In this document: positions 4,922-63,047 of the stretch, piece by piece
Layout of the letters: each line of letters starts with the position of its first letter
Numbering within the stretch: the first letter of the stretch is position 1
Origin: Sphyrna mokarran
Taxonomy: Eukaryota
Length of the DNA: 64,000 nt
Assembly (NCBI GenBank): GCA_024679065.1
Contig: JAGIQG010000009.1
Location: 91,574,001 to 91,638,000, forward strand
Direction: 5' to 3'
Translations under genes and position numbers: made by a program
Notes under the pieces: model-generated
Seen by the model: the letters and a program-made list of their open reading frames with translations, nothing else
Databases searched by the model: none
What the model was told of the DNA's origin: nothing

Positions 4922-4965
4922 TCAGTCACTCACTGGAGCTGTTGTGTACGTCTTAATTGGTGAAT
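4922..4965 (-). CDS. Gene A putative cytoplasmic-tail exon (DSPIKTYTTAPVSD*)
   Basis: Acceptor TTCACTTCTGCAG, phase 1; Tyr-containing tail; same frame and stop in gene B. An internal CCA|GTGAGT donor is possible. Confidence 0.55.
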
Positions 4966-5350: not shown

Positions 5351-5461
5351 CTCTCCGCTGTCTTTTCCAGATGATTATTCCGAATATAACAGCCAGTGCT
5401 GAGATCACTGATCCGATTATAATTCCAAGATGGGACCATTCTCCACTGTTTTCCGGTATTT
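5351..5461 (-). CDS. Gene A connecting peptide/transmembrane exon
   Basis: TGTTTCAG acceptor, G|GTAAGA donor, 111 nt, phase 1-1; EIPENSGEWSHLGIIIGSVISALAVIFGIIIWKRQRR (hydrophobic span plus basic stop-transfer). Confidence 0.9.
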
Positions 5462-5824: not shown

Positions 5825-6103
5825 CCAACTGATAGAGCTTGGGCTCTGCCAGGCTGCTGTGTTCAATTTGACAGGAGTATTGATCCTCATCCCCAGCATT
5901 TATTTCAATCTCTTTCTGGATCTGATGTGTTCCATCATGGTTCGGTCGAATCCCCGAGGATAGTGTCTCAGACATTACCTCTCCGTTCCTTAACCAGTTC
6001 ACCTCGATGTCTACAGGATAAAAGCCAGTAACCAGGCAGGAGAGAGTGAGGGGCTTGTACTGACTATTGGGCTCACTTCTGGAGATGAACACTTCAGGCT
6101 GTA
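5825..6103 (-). CDS. Gene A MHC class I alpha3 (Ig C1) exon
   Basis: 279 nt, CCATTACAG acceptor, G|GTAAGG donor; LSCLVTGFYP, WLRNGE, PNHDGT, YSCQIEHSSL. Confidence 0.96.
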
Positions 6104-6220
6104 CTGTAATGGGAAAGGGTGAAAACACAAACAATAAACCCACACTGAATGGAATGGGGGAACGGTTTGATAAATCAGTGAAGTTAGAGCAGAACATGGA
6201 TTGAAAACTGAAATCAATAC

Positions 6221-6496
6221 CTTTCTGTCCAAAATATACTTTTCCAGCTTCCAAATATTTCTTTAAATGTTCAACAAATTCTTCCTGCAGTTGTTGTTTC
6301 CAGTAATTATTCCAGGATTGATCTGAATCCCATTTCTCTTTAGTCTTCACTGCAAAGTGATTGGATGCGACCCATCTCATTCTGTCTGGCTCTAAACTAA
6401 TATAGTCCTTTCCATCAAATCCGACCTGCATCGATCTCGTAATGGAGCCGTCTTCAGTGACCTCGACAGACCAAATCCATTGGAAAATATGGATTC
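6221..6496 (-). CDS. Gene A MHC class I alpha2 exon (non-classical, no Cys)
   Basis: 276 nt, CTCTGACAG acceptor, G|GTATTG donor; GIHIFQ, GFDGKDYISL, TKEKWD, LKKYL. Confidence 0.95.
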
Positions 6497-7259
6497 CTGT
6501 CAGAGAGCAAATGATGATCAATATTCAGTGAACTGGAAGATTGGAAATATTGCTTTGTTAATCAATAAATTGGAGAAATGATCTTTGTGATAGAATTGTC
6601 AGCAAAACTGAAATCCCTGGAATAAAATAAGCAGCATCAGAATGTAAACAAACTTGCCGAATGGATCAGAAACAGAGTGGCCAGGATTCTCCCAAAATAA
6701 TTCAACTGTCAAATTCGTTTGAAACCTGGAGTAAATCACGTTTCATTTTGAAACTCCCGCTGTAAAAACAATCTCCCTCAATCTGTACATTGCAGAGAGC
6801 ACGAGCAGGTTTCACACTGAAAAGCTGTCGGTGGGGCCTATTCCCGCTGGAGAGACTGACAGCAAAGTGCTGAGTGGGCCACTGCACATGTGCCAATCAG
6901 TCAGATTGGTGCATGCTCTGTAGCCCCTGTCTGCCGGCCGGCTCGATCGCTGGTCAGTTCTGCAATTCCGACAAGGTCAGTCCTCCACCAACCCCCCCAC
7001 CCCACAGCCCGATCTCTGGTCCCCTGAACATTCACGCACCATCTCCAATCACCATCCGCCCTTCCAGCCTGCCCTAATCTCCAGTACCCTCTGATCCCAC
7101 ATGATCTTGACAATTACCCCACCCCACACTCCGTAGTGCCAGCTTGCCCTCCCTCGTGTAAGGCAGCCCCACTACCCCCCACCTCCAGCACGCTGACCCC
7201 ACACCCACACCGATGGCCAGCCCTGATCGTTGGCCTTCCTCCTTCCCCCATGATCCTCC

Positions 7260-7385
7260 ATGGTGGCACAGTGGACAGTGAAGAAAGTTATCTCCAATTG
7301 CAATGGGATCGTGATCAATTGGGCCAGAGGGCTGACGAATGACAGATGGAGTTTAACTTAGGCAAATGCGAGGTGATGCATTTGA
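7260..7385 (+). mobile_element. Short CR1 RT fragment
   Basis: GGTVDSEESYLQLQWD...QMEFNL.KCEVMH. Confidence 0.7.
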
Positions 7386-7566
7386 CCTGAAGAGATCAAA
7401 TCCACTGAAGAATGTGACTTCCTTCAGAAACTAAATAGGGATCAATAATCAATAGACAATCTTTTCAGTGGAGAAAGGGAATTTCGTCTGAGATAGAAAT
7501 GGATGGAATTTTCCTCTGCCATTAGTAATAGGAAGCTGAGCAGTGAGGTTACTAAATTAGATGGAG

Positions 7567-7797
7567 CCAGTGCTGGGGGACTGAGTCCAGTGTCCCAGGG
7601 GTCAGTGCTGGGGGACTGAGTCCAGTTTCCCAGGGGTCAGTGCTGGGGGACTGAGTCCAGTGTCCCAGGGGTCAGTGCTGGGGGACTGAGTCCAGTGTCC
7701 CAGGGGTCAGTGCTGGGGGACTGAGTCCAGTGTCCCAGGGGCCAGTGCTGGGGGACTGAGTCCAGTGTCCCAGGGGCCAGTGCTGGGGGACTGAGCT
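7567..7797. repeat. 35-bp minisatellite (CAGTGCTGGGGGACTGAGTCCAGTGTCCCAGGGGT), about 6.5 units
   Basis: CAGTGCTG starts at 7568, 7603, 7638, 7673, 7708, 7743, 7778. Confidence 0.95.
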
Positions 7798-7846
7798 CAG
7801 TGCAAGGTTGTACATCAACACGCTTATTCTCTCTGTCTGTTCTTAC

Positions 7847-8107
7847 CGGATGTCTGGTTTGTGATCTTCAGCACTGTATTCAGATTCTCCTTTGCCATGT
7901 TTGAGTGTGAGTTCACCAGTGCTGTGATATAATCCCAGAATTCAGAGCTGATATTTTCAGCAATGAACCTCTGCCTGGGAATGCAGCGACCGATATTACT
8001 GTCATAATATCCTATTTGGACACCATTGACTATTGCAGTGCTTGTGACCTCAGGAAAATCTTCTATCCCAGAGACAACATTACGCATCACCATGAGTGTG
8101 TTAATGT
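7847..8107 (-). CDS. Gene A MHC class I alpha1 exon
   Basis: 261 nt, TTCTTTTACAG acceptor, G|GTAAGA donor; DINTLMVMRNVVSGIEDFPEV...YYDSN...FWD...TNQTSG with the conserved N86 sequon. Confidence 0.93.
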
Positions 8108-8179
8108 CTGTAAAAGAAACAGTTAAAGGGACGGGTCAATAAACATCTCTGATCATCAGAACAATCTCACAGGACTTCA

Positions 8180-21435: not shown

Positions 21436-21487
21436 CGGGAGAGACCCAGGAAAAACACAGGGAGATGGAGAAAAGGATCAGCAACAT
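21436..21487 (-). CDS. Gene A leader (signal peptide) exon MLLILFSISLCFSWVSP(D)
   Basis: ATG plus 52 nt, hydrophobic, G|GTAAGT phase-1 donor matching the alpha1 acceptor; nearest intact leader upstream of alpha1-A. Confidence 0.82.
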
Positions 21488-22159: not shown

Positions 22160-22211
22160 CGGGAGACACCCAGGAAAAACACAGGGAGATGGAGAAAAGG
22201 ATCAGCAACAT
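22160..22211 (-). pseudogene. Orphan leader exon copy with dead donor (CTAAGT) and no promoter
   Basis: 52-nt copy of the leader; GT changed to CT; homology to the promoter ends about 50 nt upstream of the ATG. Confidence 0.8.
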
Positions 22212-22433
22212 TCTGGGAATCCACTGTCCCAATTCCAATCAGTGACTGGGAATTAAACATTCGAAGGAGGAAACTAATATTGTTTATTGTGATCGGAAAA
22301 CATAAAAAAAATGTTGATAAGGGCTCCAGTTGCCTGTCTTCATTAAAATGTGATCAGTTCCCTGACGTTAAGCCACACAGTAAGAATTTAGTAACACCAA
22401 TTTTAAATCGAACCGATTTATTTGATAGTAAAA

Positions 22434-22469
22434 TTGCGAGCTTTCAACACTCTGTTCTTCCTCAGGCAA
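22434..22469 (-). ncRNA. Minimal type I hammerhead ribozyme motif (left Penelope arm)
   Basis: TTGC-CTGAGGA-AGAACAGAGTGTT-GAAA-GC-TC-GCAA. Confidence 0.65.
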
Positions 22470-24221
22470 ATGCAGTGTTCTGGTCTGCAATAGCACACAT
22501 CAGCACAGACAGTCAGAGATTGCTGATTAGAATGCAAATCCTTACATCTAACCTGCTATTCAAGTGTTAAAGTGGCTAACAATGTGTGTGAAGGGAATCC
22601 TGAGCATTTAGAGAATTGTGTATTTTCTCCAGACAGCACAGTAAGTGAGGTTTTTTGCTAACCCAGGCAAGTTACGGGGGTTACAGATAGCGTGTCATGA
22701 AGCCAAGATCCCTGTTAAGACCGTCCTCATGTGTGCGGAGCTTGGCTATCAGTCTCTGCTCAGCGACTCTGCGCTGTCGTGTATCACGAAAGCCCCCTTG
22801 AAGAACATTTACCCGCAGGTCGGAGGCCGAATGCCCATGACTGCTGAAGTGTTCGCCCACAGGAAGGGAACTGTTTTGCCTGGTGATTGTTGAGCGATGC
22901 TCATTCATCCGCTGTCGTAGTGTCTGCATGGTCTCCCCAATATACCATGCTTCGGGACATCCTTTCTTGCAACGTATTAGGTAGACAACGTTGGCCGAGT
23001 TGCAAGAGTATGTACCGTGTACCTGGTGAATGGTATCCTCACGTTTGATGATGTCGTCCATGTCTATGATCTGGCATGTCTTGCAGAGGTTGCTGTGGCA
23101 GGGTTGTGTGGTATTGTGGTCACTGTTCTCCTGAAGGTTGGGTAGTTTGCTGCGAACAATGATCTGTTTGAGGTTGTGCGGTTGTCTGAAAGCAAGAAGT
23201 GGGGGGGTGGGGATGGCCCTAGCGAGATGTTCATCGTCATCAATGATATGTTGAAGACTCCGGAGAAGATGTCGTAGCTTCTCCGCTCCGGGGAAGTACT
23301 GGACAACAAAGGGTACTCTGTCCACCGTGTCCCGTGTCTCCTCAGAAGATGAACACGGGGACGGTGGACAGAGTACCTTTGTTGTCCAGTACTTCCCCGG
23401 AGTGGAGAAGCTACAACATCTTCTCCGGAGTCTTCAACATATCATTGATGACGATGAACATCTCGCTAGGGCCATCCCCACCCCCCCACTTCTTGCTTTC
23501 AGACAACCGCACAACCTCAAACAGATCATTGTTCGCAGCAAACTACCCAACCTTCAGGAGAACAGTGACCACAATACCACACAACCCTGCCACAGCAACC
23601 TCTGCAAGACATGCCGGATCATAGACATGGACGACATCATCAAACGTGAGGATACCATTCACCAGGTACACGGTACATACTCTTGCAACTCGGCCAACGT
23701 TGTCTACCTAATACGTTGCAAGAAAGGATGTCCCGAAGCATGGTATATTGGGGAGACCATGCAGACACTACGACAGCGGATGAATGAGCATCGCTCAACA
23801 ATCACCAGGCAAAACAGTTCCCTTCCTGTGGGCGAACACTTCAGCAGTCATGGGCATTCGGCCTCCGACCTGCGGGTAAATGTTCTTCAAGGGGGCTTTC
23901 GTGATACACGACAGCGCAGAGTCGCTGAGCAGAGACTGATAGCCAAGCTCCGCACACATGAGGACGGTCTTAACAGGGATCTTGGCTTCATGACACGCTA
24001 TCTGTAACCCCCGTAACTTGCCTGGGTTAGCAAAAAACCTCACTTACTGTGCTGTCTGGAGAAAATACACAATTCTCTAACCAATGCTCAGGATTCCCTT
24101 CACACACATTGTTAGCCACTTTAACACTTGAATAGCAGGTTAGATGTAAGGATTCGCATTCAAATCAGCAATCTCTGACTGTCTGTGCTGATGTGTGCTA
24201 TTGCAGACCAGAACACCGCAT

Positions 24222-24258
24222 TTGCCTGAGGAAGACACAGAGTGTTGAAAGCTCGCAA
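24222..24258 (+). ncRNA. Minimal type I hammerhead ribozyme motif (right Penelope arm)
   Basis: TTGC-CTGAGGA-A-GACAC(AGA)GTGTT-GAAA-GC-TC-GCAA: stem I TTGC/GCAA, core CUGANGA...GAAA, palindromic AGCU in place of stem III. Confidence 0.7.
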
Positions 24259-27200
24259 TTTTACTATCAAATAAATCGGTTCGATTAAAAATTGGTGTTG
24301 CTAAATTCTTACTGAGTTCTTACCACCCCAATCCAACGCCGGCATCTTTACGTTAAGCCACACAGCCACAGGGAGAATAATTCATTGCTGTCAGAAAAAG
24401 AGCCAATGAAAGGAAAGAATTTCAAATGTCTATTTTTCACAACTAGGCTTACATTCATAGTGTAATGAAGTTACTGTGAAAATCCTCGAGTTGCGACACT
24501 CCAGCACCCGTTCAGGTACACTGAGGGAGAATTTAACATGGGTGATTCACCTATCCTGTCTCCAGTTATCAGGAAATTGTCCATTTCCAGTTCCGACACT
24601 TCCATGTTAAGTTTCCTCCTCCATCAGGAATGGACACAAAAATAGGGCTTGAAAATGATAAAGAAGCCACACTACAAACAACCATCATTTTAGCTGCTGC
24701 AGGCTTTGGGCCCAGTCAGGCCACCTGCCCCCACAAGGGTACAGATTGTTAGACTAATTAAAAATCTTGTTACACTGCAATTCTTCCAGTCCGCTTTAGG
24801 TTTTCCAATTTGAAATTCAGCAGACGAATGGTCTGGTCTGAGCACACACAGTTGGCCAGGGAGGACAGTCCTCCCACAATCCCTTTCAGCTTGCCTGGCT
24901 GGAGGAGCAGACACAGTTTGTCCTGTAGATGGACATTCCCCTTCCCTCACCACACTCCCCCTCACCCCCATAATGGTGGCCTGGCTTCTTTCTTGGTTTA
25001 TTTTGATGGTTTTCTGAAGTGACTAACAAGGACTTTCCTGTTGAAGCAGTTTCTCAGTTACACACCCTGTACTGTAGCTGGGTGCTTGTCGAAAGCTGGA
25101 GGAATCTGGATTGGTTATTGGGGAGCCTGCCCACTGTTCTTAATTGTGAGGGAAATGGTTTCCATGCCAATTATAAATGTTCCCCCACAGAAAATCCTTA
25201 ACTGTGACCTGTATCTTTGTGTTTATACCTCTCTTTATTTCTGTGAGTGTGTGTGTACATGAGCATGTGTGTATACTTATGTGGGTATGTGAGCATGTGT
25301 ATGTGTATTTGCACGCCAGTGTGTGCTCGTAGCTGTGTGTGTGTATGGATCTTTGTGTCTGTGTGTTTGCATGTGTGTTCACTTATCTCAGTTTGTATCT
25401 GTATGTGTGTGTGCGCACGCTGGTATATATGTGCGTGCTTATGTGAGGCTGTATGTGCATCTTCACTCCATAACCCATTCAATTATCAATTACAATTTAA
25501 AATGAAAAACTTCCAACAATTCTACAAAGTAAGACTGTAAGACTGTTAAATTATTCAATTTATTTCCAGTTGCCTCTTTTTTAATCTCAACAGGATGTGA
25601 AAATTCCTGGCTAGGCCAGCATTTATTGCCCATCCCTAGTTGCCCTTCACAATGCTGTTAGAGTGGGAGTTCTAGGGTTTTGACCCAGTGATAGTGAAGG
25701 AACAACAGATATATTTCCAAGTTAGAGTGATGTGTGGCTTGGAGTGGAACCTCCAGGTAGTGTGTGTTCCCAAGTATCTGCTGTCCTTATCCTTCAAGGT
25801 GCTTGTGGGTTTTGAAGATGCTGCCCAAGGAGCCTTGGTGAGTTCCTGCAGTGAATCTTGTAGATGGTTCACACAGCTGCCACTGACCATCAGTGGTGGA
25901 GGGCTTGAATCATAGAATCCTCCAGTGCAGGAGAAGGCCACTCAGCCCATCAAGTCTGCACCAACCGTAATCCTACACCATCCCCATTAACTCATGCATT
26001 TAGCTGTGCTAATCCCAAGACACAAATGGGTTATTTAGCCTGACCAGTTCAGCTCACCCGCACATCTTTAGACCATGGGAGGAAACCAGAACACTCTGAG
26101 GAAACACACACAGGCACGTGGAGAATGTGCAAACTTCACATAGACCGTGACCCAAGAAGGGAATCATACCCGGGTCCCTGGTGTTGTGAGGCAGCAGTGC
26201 TAACCACTATTCCACCAGGCTGTCCCTTGTGGAATGGGTAGCAATGAAATGAGCTGCTTTATCCTGAATAGAGTCTGTTGAGTTTCTTGAGTGTTTTTAG
26301 AGCTGTCCTTACCTCGGCAAGTGGAGAGAATTCCATTACATAGAAACATAGAAAACAGAAGCAGGAGTAGGTTATTCAACTCTTTGAGAGTTTTCACCAT
26401 TCATTATGATCATGGTTGATCATCAAATTCAATATCATAATCCTCTTCCCCCATAACCCTTGATCCCAAAAGGCCCAAAAACTCCATCTAATTTATTCTC
26501 GAAGTCAGACCATGTTTTGGCCTCACCGACTTTCTGTGGTACTGAATTCCTCACACTCACCACTCACTGGATGAAGAAACTTCTCCTCACCTCAGTTCTT
26601 ATCCTCAAACTATGACTCCTAGTTCTGGACTCCCTCATTGTTTGGAACATTCTTTCTGAATTACCCTGTCTAATCCTATTAGATTTCTTAAGTCTCAATG
26701 AGATCCCCTCTCACTCTTCTAAACTCCAATGAATACAATCCTCACACTCCTGACTTGTGCCATGTAGATGGTGGACAGGTTCTGGGGAGTCAGGAAGTGG
26801 TTACCCACTGCAGGATTCCTAACCTCTGACCTGCTCTTGTAACTACAGTATATGGCTAATGGCGAATCCAGTTTTGTTTCTGGTCAATGAAAGGCCCCAG
26901 GATGTTGCTAATGGAGGATTCAGACATGATAATACCATTGAGTTCAAGGGATGGTGGTTAGATTCTCTCTTGTTGGGGATGATTGTTGCCTTGCACTTGT
27001 GTGGCCCAAATATTACTTGGCACTTGTTAGTCCAAGCCTGGATATTGTTCAGGTCTTGCTGCATTTTGGACACAGACTGCTTCGACATCTGAGGAGATAT
27101 AATGTAGCTGAACATCAGTGAACATCCCCACTTCTGACTTATCATAGAAGGCAGGTCATTGATGAAGCAGCTGAAGATGGTTGGGATTGGGACACAAATT

Positions 27201-28860: not shown

Positions 28861-28904
28861 TCAGTCACTCAGTGGAGCTGTTGTGTACGTCCCACTTGGT
28901 GAAT
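28861..28904 (-). CDS. Gene B putative cytoplasmic exon (DSPSGTYTTAPLSD*)
   Basis: Same acceptor, frame and stop as in gene A. Confidence 0.5.
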
Positions 28905-29310: not shown

Positions 29311-29430
29311 CTCTCCGCTGTCTTTTCCAGATGATTATTCCGATTATTCCAAATATAACAGCCAGTGCAGGGATCACTGTTCCGATTATAATTCCTAAAT
29401 TGAAATTTCCTCCACAGTTTTCTGGTATTT
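29311..29430 (-). CDS. Gene B connecting peptide/TM exon
   Basis: 120 nt, TTTTTCAG acceptor, G|GTAAGA donor; EIPENCGGNFNLGIIIGTVIPALAVIFGIIGIIIWKRQRR. Confidence 0.88.
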
Positions 29431-29809: not shown

Positions 29810-30088
29810 CCCACTGATAGAGCTTGGGCTCTGCCAGGCTGCTGTGTTCAATTTGACAGGAGTATTGATTCTCATCCCCAGCATTTATTTCAATCTCTTT
29901 CTGAATCTGATGGCTCCCATCATGGTTTGGTCGAATTCCCGAGGATAGTGTTTCAGACATTACCTCTCCATTCCTTAACCAGTTCACCTCGATGTCTGCA
30001 GGATAAAAGCCAGTAACCAGGCAGGAGAGAGTGAGGGGCTTGTCCTGACTATTGGGCTCACTTCTGGAGATGAAGACTTCAGGCTGAA
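29810..30088 (-). CDS. Gene B MHC class I alpha3 exon
   Basis: 279 nt, canonical splice sites, both Ig Cys present, 5 aa differences from gene A. Confidence 0.93.
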
Positions 30089-30205
30089 CTGTAATGGGAA
30101 AGGGTGAAAACACAAACAATAAACCCACACTGAATGGAATGGGAGAACGGTTTGATAAATCAGTGAAGTTAGAGCAGAACATGGACTTAAAACTGAATTC
30201 AATAC

Positions 30206-30480
30206 CTTTCCGTCCAAAATATACTTTTCCAGCTTGTAAATATAACAACAAATATTTCACCAAGACTTTTTCAAGACTTGTTTTCCAATAGTTGTTCCAG
30301 GATTGATCCGAATCCCATTTCTCTTTGTCTTCACTGCCATGTGATTGGATGCGACCCATCTCATTCTGTTGGGCTCTAAACTGATATGGTCTTTTCCATC
30401 AAATCCAACTCTCATCGATCTCTTTATGGAGCCGTCTTCAGCAATCTCAACAATTAGGATCCATTGAAAAACGTGAATTC
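30206..30480 (-). pseudogene. Gene B alpha2 exon with a 1-nt deletion (frameshift) at about 30326
   Basis: 275 nt versus 276 in gene A; the homologous peptide is split between ORFs 30257-30508 and 29655-30359. Confidence 0.85.
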
Positions 30481-37753: not shown

Positions 37754-38014
37754 CAGATGTCTGGTTTGTGTTCTTCATTATCGAATTCAGACTCTCCTTT
37801 GCCATGTCTGATCGTTTAATTATGATAGATGTAATGCTTTCCCAATATTCCTCACCAAAAAATTCCACCATGAATTGCTGTCTGGGAATTAATCGAGGAA
37901 TGTGAGTGTCATGATAATTAAGTAGAACTCCCTTCACTATTGCAACATTAGTAACCTCAGGAAGATCACCGATTCCGGAGATTGCCGTGTATATCACAGT
38001 CAGTGAGTCAGTAT
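37754..38014 (-). CDS. Gene B MHC class I alpha1 exon
   Basis: 261 nt, ATTTTACAG acceptor, G|GTAAGA donor; TDSLTVIYTAISGIGDLPEV...EEYWE...TNQTSG. Confidence 0.92.
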
Positions 38015-39796: not shown

Positions 39797-39848
39797 TGGG
39801 AGAGACCCAGGAAAAACACAGGGAGATGGAGAAAAGGATCAGCAACAT
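39797..39848 (-). CDS. Gene B proximal leader exon (intact ATG, A|GTAAGT donor)
   Basis: 52 nt MLLILFSISLCFSWVSP(N), 1.8 kb upstream of alpha1-B. Confidence 0.82.
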
Positions 39849-46953: not shown

Positions 46954-47005
46954 CGGGAGAGACCCAGGAAAAACACAGGGAGATGGAGAAAAGGATCAGC
47001 AACAT
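46954..47005 (-). CDS. Distal intact leader exon (candidate alternative first exon of gene B)
   Basis: 52 nt, ATG and G|GTAAGT intact; no alpha1 exon between it and the 39797 leader. Confidence 0.7.
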
Positions 47006-59577: not shown

Positions 59578-59629
59578 CTGGAGACACCCAGGAAAAGCAC
59601 AGGGAGATGGAGAAAAGGATCAGCAACAT
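59578..59629 (-). pseudogene. Leader exon copy with destroyed donor (AAAAGT)
   Basis: ATG intact; GT replaced by AA. Confidence 0.8.
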
Positions 59630-62995: not shown

Positions 62996-63047
62996 CGGGA
63001 AAGGCCCAGGGAAAACACAGGGAGACGGAGAAAAGGATCAGCAATGT
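62996..63047 (-). pseudogene. Leader exon copy lacking the start codon (ATG to ACA) and promoter
   Basis: Donor GTAAGT intact, ATG lost; positional paralog of 22160-22211. Confidence 0.78.

Follow-up and report, generated by a model that had tools for sequence, protein, structure and literature searches.

We identify two MHC class I heavy-chain genes, A and B, on the minus strand of the window, the 64,000-nucleotide stretch of Sphyrna mokarran DNA analysed here, from exons cut at GT/AG and translated. On balance, we favour a reading in which gene A, intact and transcribed, belongs to a multigene class Ib family spread across sharks, likely beta2m-bound, with a groove fixed at one end and fast-changing at the other and with the alpha2 disulfide lost once in an ancestor. 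Exon translation gives gene A an open protein of 340 amino acids with no disruption, laid out as follows.

21436..21487, minus strand: leader exon, MLLILFSISLCFSWVSP, GT donor intact; the nearest intact leader copy upstream of alpha1
7847..8107, minus strand: alpha1 exon, with V7, F59, I63, L66, I84 and the N86 sequon; spliced joint 6495/7846
6221..6496, minus strand: alpha2 exon, with V101 and F164; W97, M114, W133, T143, K146, W147, W152 and W156; Q159, H167 and Y171
6104..6220, minus strand: alpha2-alpha3 intron, 117 bp, in frame and stop-free; skipped in X1 and X4 contigs
5825..6103, minus strand: alpha3 exon, C1-set, C203/C259 pair kept
5351..5461, minus strand: connecting peptide and transmembrane exon; joint 4965/5351 in X1, X2 and X4
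4922..4965, minus strand: last coding exon, a short tail with YTTA and then a stop; RNA contig cover runs on into the 3' UTR

The leader is assigned to gene A by position, its joint to alpha1 being represented by a loose end only, at 8108 in run X1. Every residue that the earlier note had read in gene A stands in the translated exons (V7, F59, I84, N86, H93, Q96, V101, D119, G120, D122, T143, K146, W147, Q159, F164, H167 and Y171). The residue numbers fit both the HLA-A2 row in the supplementary alignment of PMC10751288 and PDB alignments.

Absence of the C101-C164 disulfide is a property of the whole family. The translated exons bear out the earlier reading of C101 as V in both genes and of C164 as F in gene A and L in gene B. 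An alpha2 search recovered 71 family proteins among 72 candidates, at 63-86% alpha2 identity and with every named one from sharks, and none of the 71 has both alpha2 cysteines. Position 101 is V in 64, I in 2, A in 1, a gap in 3 and C in 1, this last being a partial model that is misaligned there and carries Y164; V101 is common to 11 shark genera. Position 164 is C in 8/71, always beside V101, and bulky in 47/71 (L 21, F 16, Y 10). The pattern indicates that the bond is lost through C101 and that residue 164 then drifts, because C164 persists beside V101 in those eight while no homologue has both. Both cysteines are present in every other class I lineage of this genome (loci L018, L020, L021, L023-L025, L027-L030 and L051-L058), so the missing disulfide is not chance. 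We propose that V101 packs on the bulky residue 164 and would thereby replace the bond. A compensating disulfide was also sought, and rejected for gene A and its family: C45 is the sole alpha1 cysteine of gene A, and across the family the cysteines at 45, 71 and 164 are scattered.

The alpha2 file of the PMC10751288 supplement holds 26 class I rows, of which 23 have both cysteines and three have neither: the nurse-shark Gcirratum_UCA_NODE_26056, dogfish UCA and a ray 'UHA'. The missing disulfide had been proposed as the mark of a new lineage or special sublineage, a role it loses as a trait of all 71 homologues and of published nurse-shark and dogfish sequences. In the literature searched, with most subscription papers and bioRxiv supplements outside its scope, no text states that a shark class I lineage is without C101-C164, and the portions of PMC6523485, PMC4364491 and PMC9586880 that were covered contain nothing on the cysteines of this lineage. 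In human HLA-A2, the alpha2 disulfide and residues 124-147, a buried cluster, are needed for TAPBPR binding, according to the sections of PMC6926029 consulted; in the sharks, the class I platform persists without a disulfide that human class I needs for chaperone binding.

The family is very likely the published UEA lineage and not a new one, because disulfide loss is family-wide and the array sits at the mapped UEA place. The name rests on synteny and elimination, with no sequence named UEA among the database matches or supplement rows compared. In the hammerhead's own genome, 16 alpha2-bearing relatives, genes A and B included, lie at 90.98-91.73 Mb of contig C1548, with one more at 86.66 Mb; 11/16 array genes have open alpha1-alpha3 exons, and 5/16, gene B among them, carry stops or a frameshift. 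The neighbours are a BET-domain gene at 90.78 Mb (brd2 side), UDA-like (91.75), UFA-like (91.79) and two UGA-like genes (92.06 and 92.15), and further out a ZIP transporter at 93.68 Mb (slc39a7), an RXR gene at 94.33 (rxrb), a UBA cluster at 95.6-95.8 and UAA-like genes at 85.8. Flanking genes are named by domain family and position, with beta2m and hsd17b8 not located, and the UDA-, UFA- and UGA-like genes by eye against labelled rows of the PMC10751288 supplement. The portions of that paper used here (Verissimo et al. 2023) place single-copy UDA and multicopy UEA and UFA between brd2/beta2m and hsd17b8/rxrb/slc39a7. Our array order matches this UDA/UEA cluster, a multicopy family with brd2 on one side and slc39a7/rxrb on the other, and no second multicopy class I array lies within it. 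A 2021 UEA study by Almeida et al. is said to have found UEA in sharks only, in three sublineages and with peptide anchors lost. A 2025 review (PMC12562908) names two shark families as expanded, UBA and UEA, and assigns lipid binding to UFA/UGA.

Comparison with published sequences points the same way. Gcirratum_UCA_NODE_26056 is identical to gene A at 62/92 alpha2 (67%) and 81/93 alpha3 residues (87%), and to array member L047/L011 at 59/87 alpha1 residues (all hand counts), and its V7, V101, Q159, L164, K146, W147 and Y171 follow the anchor pattern of the family. No row of the PMC10751288 supplement files is labelled UEA, and the matching query is labelled 'UCA' there; we infer that it is UEA under a working name. 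A profile search returned 118 matches, with named family members from 11 shark genera and UDA proteins scoring far lower; none of the 118 is named from rays or chimaeras, although the search was word-seeded and such absence is not proof. A first tree, of 61/118 database proteins (those with full leader and alpha1-alpha2) and 17 own-genome rows, resolves the family as one clade (100/100) apart from UDA and UAA-2. The second, of 48/84 rows with more outgroups and with UFA compared by eye only, outside the tree, separates it from UAA, UBA, UDA and UGA (SH-aLRT 99). Gene A falls with Mustelus proteins in a recent expansion (99/84), and gene B joins L008 and L009 in an older subclade (100/100). Support is also strong for another two old subclades (100/99 and 100/95), and the expanded remainder holding A and B is less resolved.

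That the family is instead a new lineage, distinct from both UEA and UCA, would fit trees built without any sequence named UEA and an alpha2 identity to dogfish UCA of just 33% (30/92, hand count). We regard it as very improbable given the sole multicopy class I array where UEA is mapped, the nurse-shark identities in alpha1, alpha2 and alpha3 and a shark-only range among profile matches. Of the earlier note's guess of a UEA/UCA-type sublineage or a new lineage, the UEA/UCA type stands, and the new lineage or special sublineage falls to an array at the UEA locus and a trait shared by the family. On novelty, synteny and the nurse-shark query group the genes, at lineage level, inside a described lineage with the same features.

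Shark UEA is likewise multicopy, shares an MHC-Ib cluster with UDA and UFA, flanked by brd2 and slc39a7/rxrb, and occurs in sharks only in the searches made. Peptide anchors are reportedly not conserved in UEA and are unevenly lost here, T143/K146/W147 being mostly kept; no difference from the gene A family is shown. Within this comparison, gene A belongs to the recent expansion shared with Mustelus, and the hydrophobicity of its groove is no more than mild on the two scales applied. Spiny dogfish UCA (AF515705) resembles the family in V101 and V164 (no disulfide), V7, W97, W133, W152, W156 and the QW..VEV strand. Because it shares V101 and these four tryptophans, the disulfide loss and the tryptophan cluster look older than the UCA/UEA split. 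It differs from gene A in its low alpha2 identity and in having also lost T143, K146, W147 and Y171, and gene A was rejected as a dogfish UCA since it lacks close identity to it (30/92 in alpha2, against 62/92 for the nurse-shark query). UDA (QGX07421 = P0113), UFA and UGA are likewise non-classical, MHC-linked cluster neighbours; they differ in keeping C101-C164, in their single or low copy number and, for UGA-like genes, in much more hydrophobic grooves. UDA also keeps Y7/Y159/W167/Y171. The leader peptide of UDA proteins P0109-P0113 is almost identical to that of window 21436-21487, although the ectodomains are about 36% identical. Classical UAA (PDB 6LUP; L051 in the own genome) shares the fold, exon layout, beta2m-facing residues and T143/K146/W147, but keeps the disulfide and Y7, Y59, R84, Y159, W167 and Y171, at about 32% identity. 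Gene A as a classical UAA was excluded for lack of the full anchor set and C101-C164, and as a CD1-like UFA/UGA because it does not group with UGA, has no disulfide and has no strongly hydrophobic groove. The gene find itself adds little, with the lineage named and mapped and the missing cysteines visible in published sequences.

Transcripts and selection bear on whether the family is functional. Four of the 17 listed RNA runs were used, the other 13, of small share, being left out. Spliced contigs skip exactly introns 4965/5351 (X1, X2, X4), 6103/6221 (X1, X4) and 6495/7846 (X1, X2). Because the joints are spliced, the contigs point to mRNA; the 'RNA' label itself is the tool's guess. A 159-nt X1 contig matches 6221-6354 with 0 differences, the nearest paralogue differing at 2 bases and the rest at at least 11. 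Over 11 intact genes, dN/dS is 0.47 in alpha1, 0.34 in alpha2 and 0.29 in alpha3; among six recent paralogues it is 1.32, 0.54 and 0.36. Residues 111-156 have a pN of 0.012 and, over 72 family rows, a mean entropy of 0.59, against 1.36-1.60 in alpha1 and 1.57 in 157-180. Purifying selection is thus shown on alpha3 and on residues 111-156. The earlier note would have discounted genes that were unexpressed with dN/dS near 1; we find spliced transcripts and dN/dS of 0.29-0.47. On a reading of decaying duplicates, the changes would come from relaxed selection, as the stops and frameshift in 5/16 array genes, gene B included, might suggest. We consider this exceedingly improbable for the family, with V101 in 11 shark genera, dN/dS below 0.5 in three domains over the intact genes, and spliced transcripts, one of which matches gene A exactly; for gene A it is already largely refuted, and for gene B it holds.

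Among recent paralogues, an excess of amino-acid change lies at one end of the groove. For the six, the 22 groove codons assigned to the N-half give a pN of 0.247 (codon bootstrap 0.170-0.338) and the 20 of the C-half give 0.049 (0.019-0.086); pS is 0.114 overall and 0.156 at the N-half codons, so that the pN lower bound of 0.170 lies barely above the latter. With all 11 genes included the excess vanishes, N-half pN being 0.425 and local pS 0.475. The halves use what we take to be the groove positions and were defined with the entropy table already in view, and the pairs are not independent. An N-half faster than silent sites in recent paralogues is a lead, not proof.

The residues facing beta2m are near-invariant, while the peptide anchors are unevenly lost. 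Among relatives with a residue at the position, H93 is kept in 66/67, Q96 in 65/67, D119 in 69/70, and G120 and D122 in 70/70. We therefore consider a beta2m-bound surface class Ib molecule highly probable, because these interface residues are near-invariant; with the C1-set alpha3, they uphold the earlier description of a non-classical class I heavy chain with its beta2m-facing residues kept. Y7 and W167 are absent in all 71 relatives, and position 84, part of the C-terminal anchor, is R in 14/71 and Y in 0/71. Y59 is retained in 26, Y159 in 17 and Y171 in 49 of the 71, which weakens the earlier idea of a hydrophobic N-terminal pocket for lipid. T143 is retained in 53, K146 in 67 and W147 in 70. 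The 72-row table has N86, H93, Q96, M114, G120, D122, W133, W147, W152 and W156 invariant in 72/72, with W97 in 59/72 and F/V116 in 69/72.

The groove appears to be split. Its N-terminal half is the most variable part, and its C-terminal half carries the invariant M114/W133/W147/W152/W156 cluster. We propose that the frozen 111-156 segment would give stability, beta2m contact and perhaps chaperone contact, and would hold a constant ligand end. The invariant cluster, with T143/K146, could grip this constant end, probably the C-terminus of a peptide, while the untethered alpha2-2 helix and the A/B pockets would give each paralogue its own specificity. Peptides with a blocked, acylated or overhanging N-terminus would be the most likely ligands. 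Mouse H2-M3 binds formyl-peptides, and macaque Mamu-B*098 and chicken YF1 bind acylated peptides and lipids, in each case with a rebuilt N-terminal pocket and the alpha2 disulfide kept. They may serve as a working analogy for a modified N-terminus pocket in gene A and are not orthologous to it.

A peptide-like ligand held from its C-terminal side is the favoured ligand reading, though we hold it only tentatively, ahead of a lipid or metabolite and of no ligand. T143/K146/W147 may be kept for folding or chaperone contact and not for peptide, because the position 84 anchor is lost and dogfish UCA is without 143/146/147.

A lipid or small aromatic metabolite, bound in a CD1-, YF1- or MR1-like manner, would make the tryptophan cluster a cradle and T143/K146/W147 structural leftovers. 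The invariant W133/W147/W152/W156/M114 and the frequent W97 would suit this, but bulky aromatics would be expected to fill a deep pocket and not to open one. Groove hydrophobicity was measured on two scales, the positions and scales being our own choice. The means for gene A (0.41) and gene B (0.38) are somewhat above those of UAA (0.31), UBA (0.26-0.28) and UDA (about 0), whereas the family mean of 0.30 equals that of UAA (0.25 against 0.19 on the KD scale) and lies far below the UGA-like genes (0.51 and 0.62). UEA and UCA grooves were reportedly called the most hydrophobic then known, above UAA, UBA and UDA, by Almeida et al. in 2021. Charged or polar residues are nevertheless common at 9, 69, 70, 76, 99, 163 and 167. 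Hydrophobicity of the N-half is 0.36 in gene A, 0.18 in the family, 0.30 in UAA and 0.51 and 0.64 in CD1-like UGA, and the family C-half (0.43) exceeds its N-half. The earlier proposal of a hydrophobic N-terminal pocket for lipid or lipopeptide is weakened by an N-half no greasier than that of classical UAA and well below UGA on two scales, and such a pocket is not a feature of the family, in which this half varies most. No close solved structure was found among the PDB entries searched. The AlphaFold2 model built for P0001, the closest homologue (42-row alignment, mean pLDDT 64.8), adopts a class I platform whose top matches include MR1, together with chicken BF2 and shark UAA, at 28-34% identity and without preference; these ranks fail to separate BF2 from MR1 and do not discriminate ligands. 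We judge a lipid or metabolite ligand unlikely, if a serious contender.

MIC, HFE and FcRn are class I-like molecules that are ligand-free, and the tryptophans might similarly shut the groove and take over from disulfide and peptide in stabilising the platform, so that NK-type or innate T-cell receptors would recognise the variable helices themselves. Helix positions that face upward (65, 158, 162, 166 and 170) vary as much as groove positions, 111-156 is nearly frozen, and the many paralogues show gain, loss and mosaicism, all as such a role would predict. Floor positions 5, 9, 24, 34, 45 and 99 are also highly variable, however, which a closed groove would not need, and K146 and T143 are largely kept; we rate a ligand-free groove as somewhat less likely again than a lipid or metabolite.

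Returning to a C-terminally held peptide, its furthest extension is speculative and, in our estimate, rather improbable. UEA and UCA would then be a 350-million-year-old disulfide-free platform in which a W97/W133/W147/W152/W156 cage clamps a ligand by its unvarying C-terminal part, positive selection diversifies the N-terminal pockets and the untethered alpha2-2 helix, and a dozen germline presenters display N-formylated or N-acylated bacterial peptides. A split-groove design, with a fixed and a diversifying end, would if true be previously undescribed. The fixed/variable split points to specific residues for testing, and gene A, being intact and expressed, offers a candidate for refolding and ligand elution.

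Several observations concern the array and its surroundings. Gene A is a mosaic, its alpha1 nearest L003 (15 differences) and its alpha2 nearly identical to L002 (5), and alpha3 exons of recent paralogues differ by only 5-15 bases, pointing to apparent recombination and conversion in the array because of this mosaic and the near-uniform alpha3. The intact family member near 86.66 Mb of C1548, L015, is separated from the array by 4 Mb and lies closer to the UAA-like genes (85.8 Mb); its alpha2-alpha3 intron is longer, at 185 bp. L054 (92.06 Mb) is the second UGA-like gene, with the most hydrophobic groove measured and close to basking-shark P0117; L057 (93.31 Mb), a lone U-type gene with S167 and R146, lies between the clusters. 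Database models P0072, P0119, P0129 and P0131 are 611-813 aa long, and P0072, which fuses two class I ectodomains of this family, is probably an annotation read-through between tandem genes. Around gene A itself, a 35-bp tandem repeat of about 7 copies occupies 7568-7802 in the alpha1-alpha2 intron, and a 1.9-kb near-perfect inverted repeat (98%) at 22375-24317, just upstream of the leader, holds two head-to-head copies of a 250-aa ORF that we take to resemble a Penelope-type GIY-YIG endonuclease end. The YTTA of the gene A tail presumably resembles the YxxA tyrosine motif of classical class I tails; cytoplasmic tails are much longer in some old subclades of the family.

Gene B extends over 39848-28861 and is probably a pseudogene. 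Its exons are as follows.

39797..39848, minus strand: leader exon, donor intact
37754..38014, minus strand: alpha1 exon, with V7, Y59 and N84
30206..30480, minus strand: alpha2 exon, 275 bp, with a one-base deletion in codon 143 giving a frameshift and early stop
29810..30088, minus strand: alpha3 exon, 87/92 residues identical to gene A
29311..29430, minus strand: transmembrane exon, from exon translation
28861..28904, minus strand: last coding exon, from exon translation

The residues listed by the earlier note are present (V7, Y59, N84, V101, S159, L164, Y167 and Y171), but it missed the deletion near 30326, and residues 143-171 are readable only in a second frame. Codon 143 is complete in the 14 paralogues read, as ACT in 13 and ACC in 1 (2/17 loci failed to match the pattern), and the lost base is not within a homopolymer; the probable pseudogene status rests on these two points. 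A homopolymer assembly error was judged unlikely, the lost base lying outside any run. Identity between A and B rises from 42/86 in alpha1 through 69/91 in alpha2 to the near-identity of alpha3.

Four extra leader-exon copies with flanking DNA lie on the minus strand at 22160-22211, 46954-47005, 59578-59629 and 62996-63047. The splice donor is dead at 22211 and 59629 and the ATG is missing at 63047; the copy at 46954-47005, intact at 47005, could serve as an alternative first exon of gene B. The 117-bp alpha2-alpha3 intron (6104-6220 and 30089-30205) is in frame and stop-free in 10/11 intact paralogues and was probably homogenised together with alpha3. Its retention would add 39 residues, and the spliced form is the one present in the RNA contigs.
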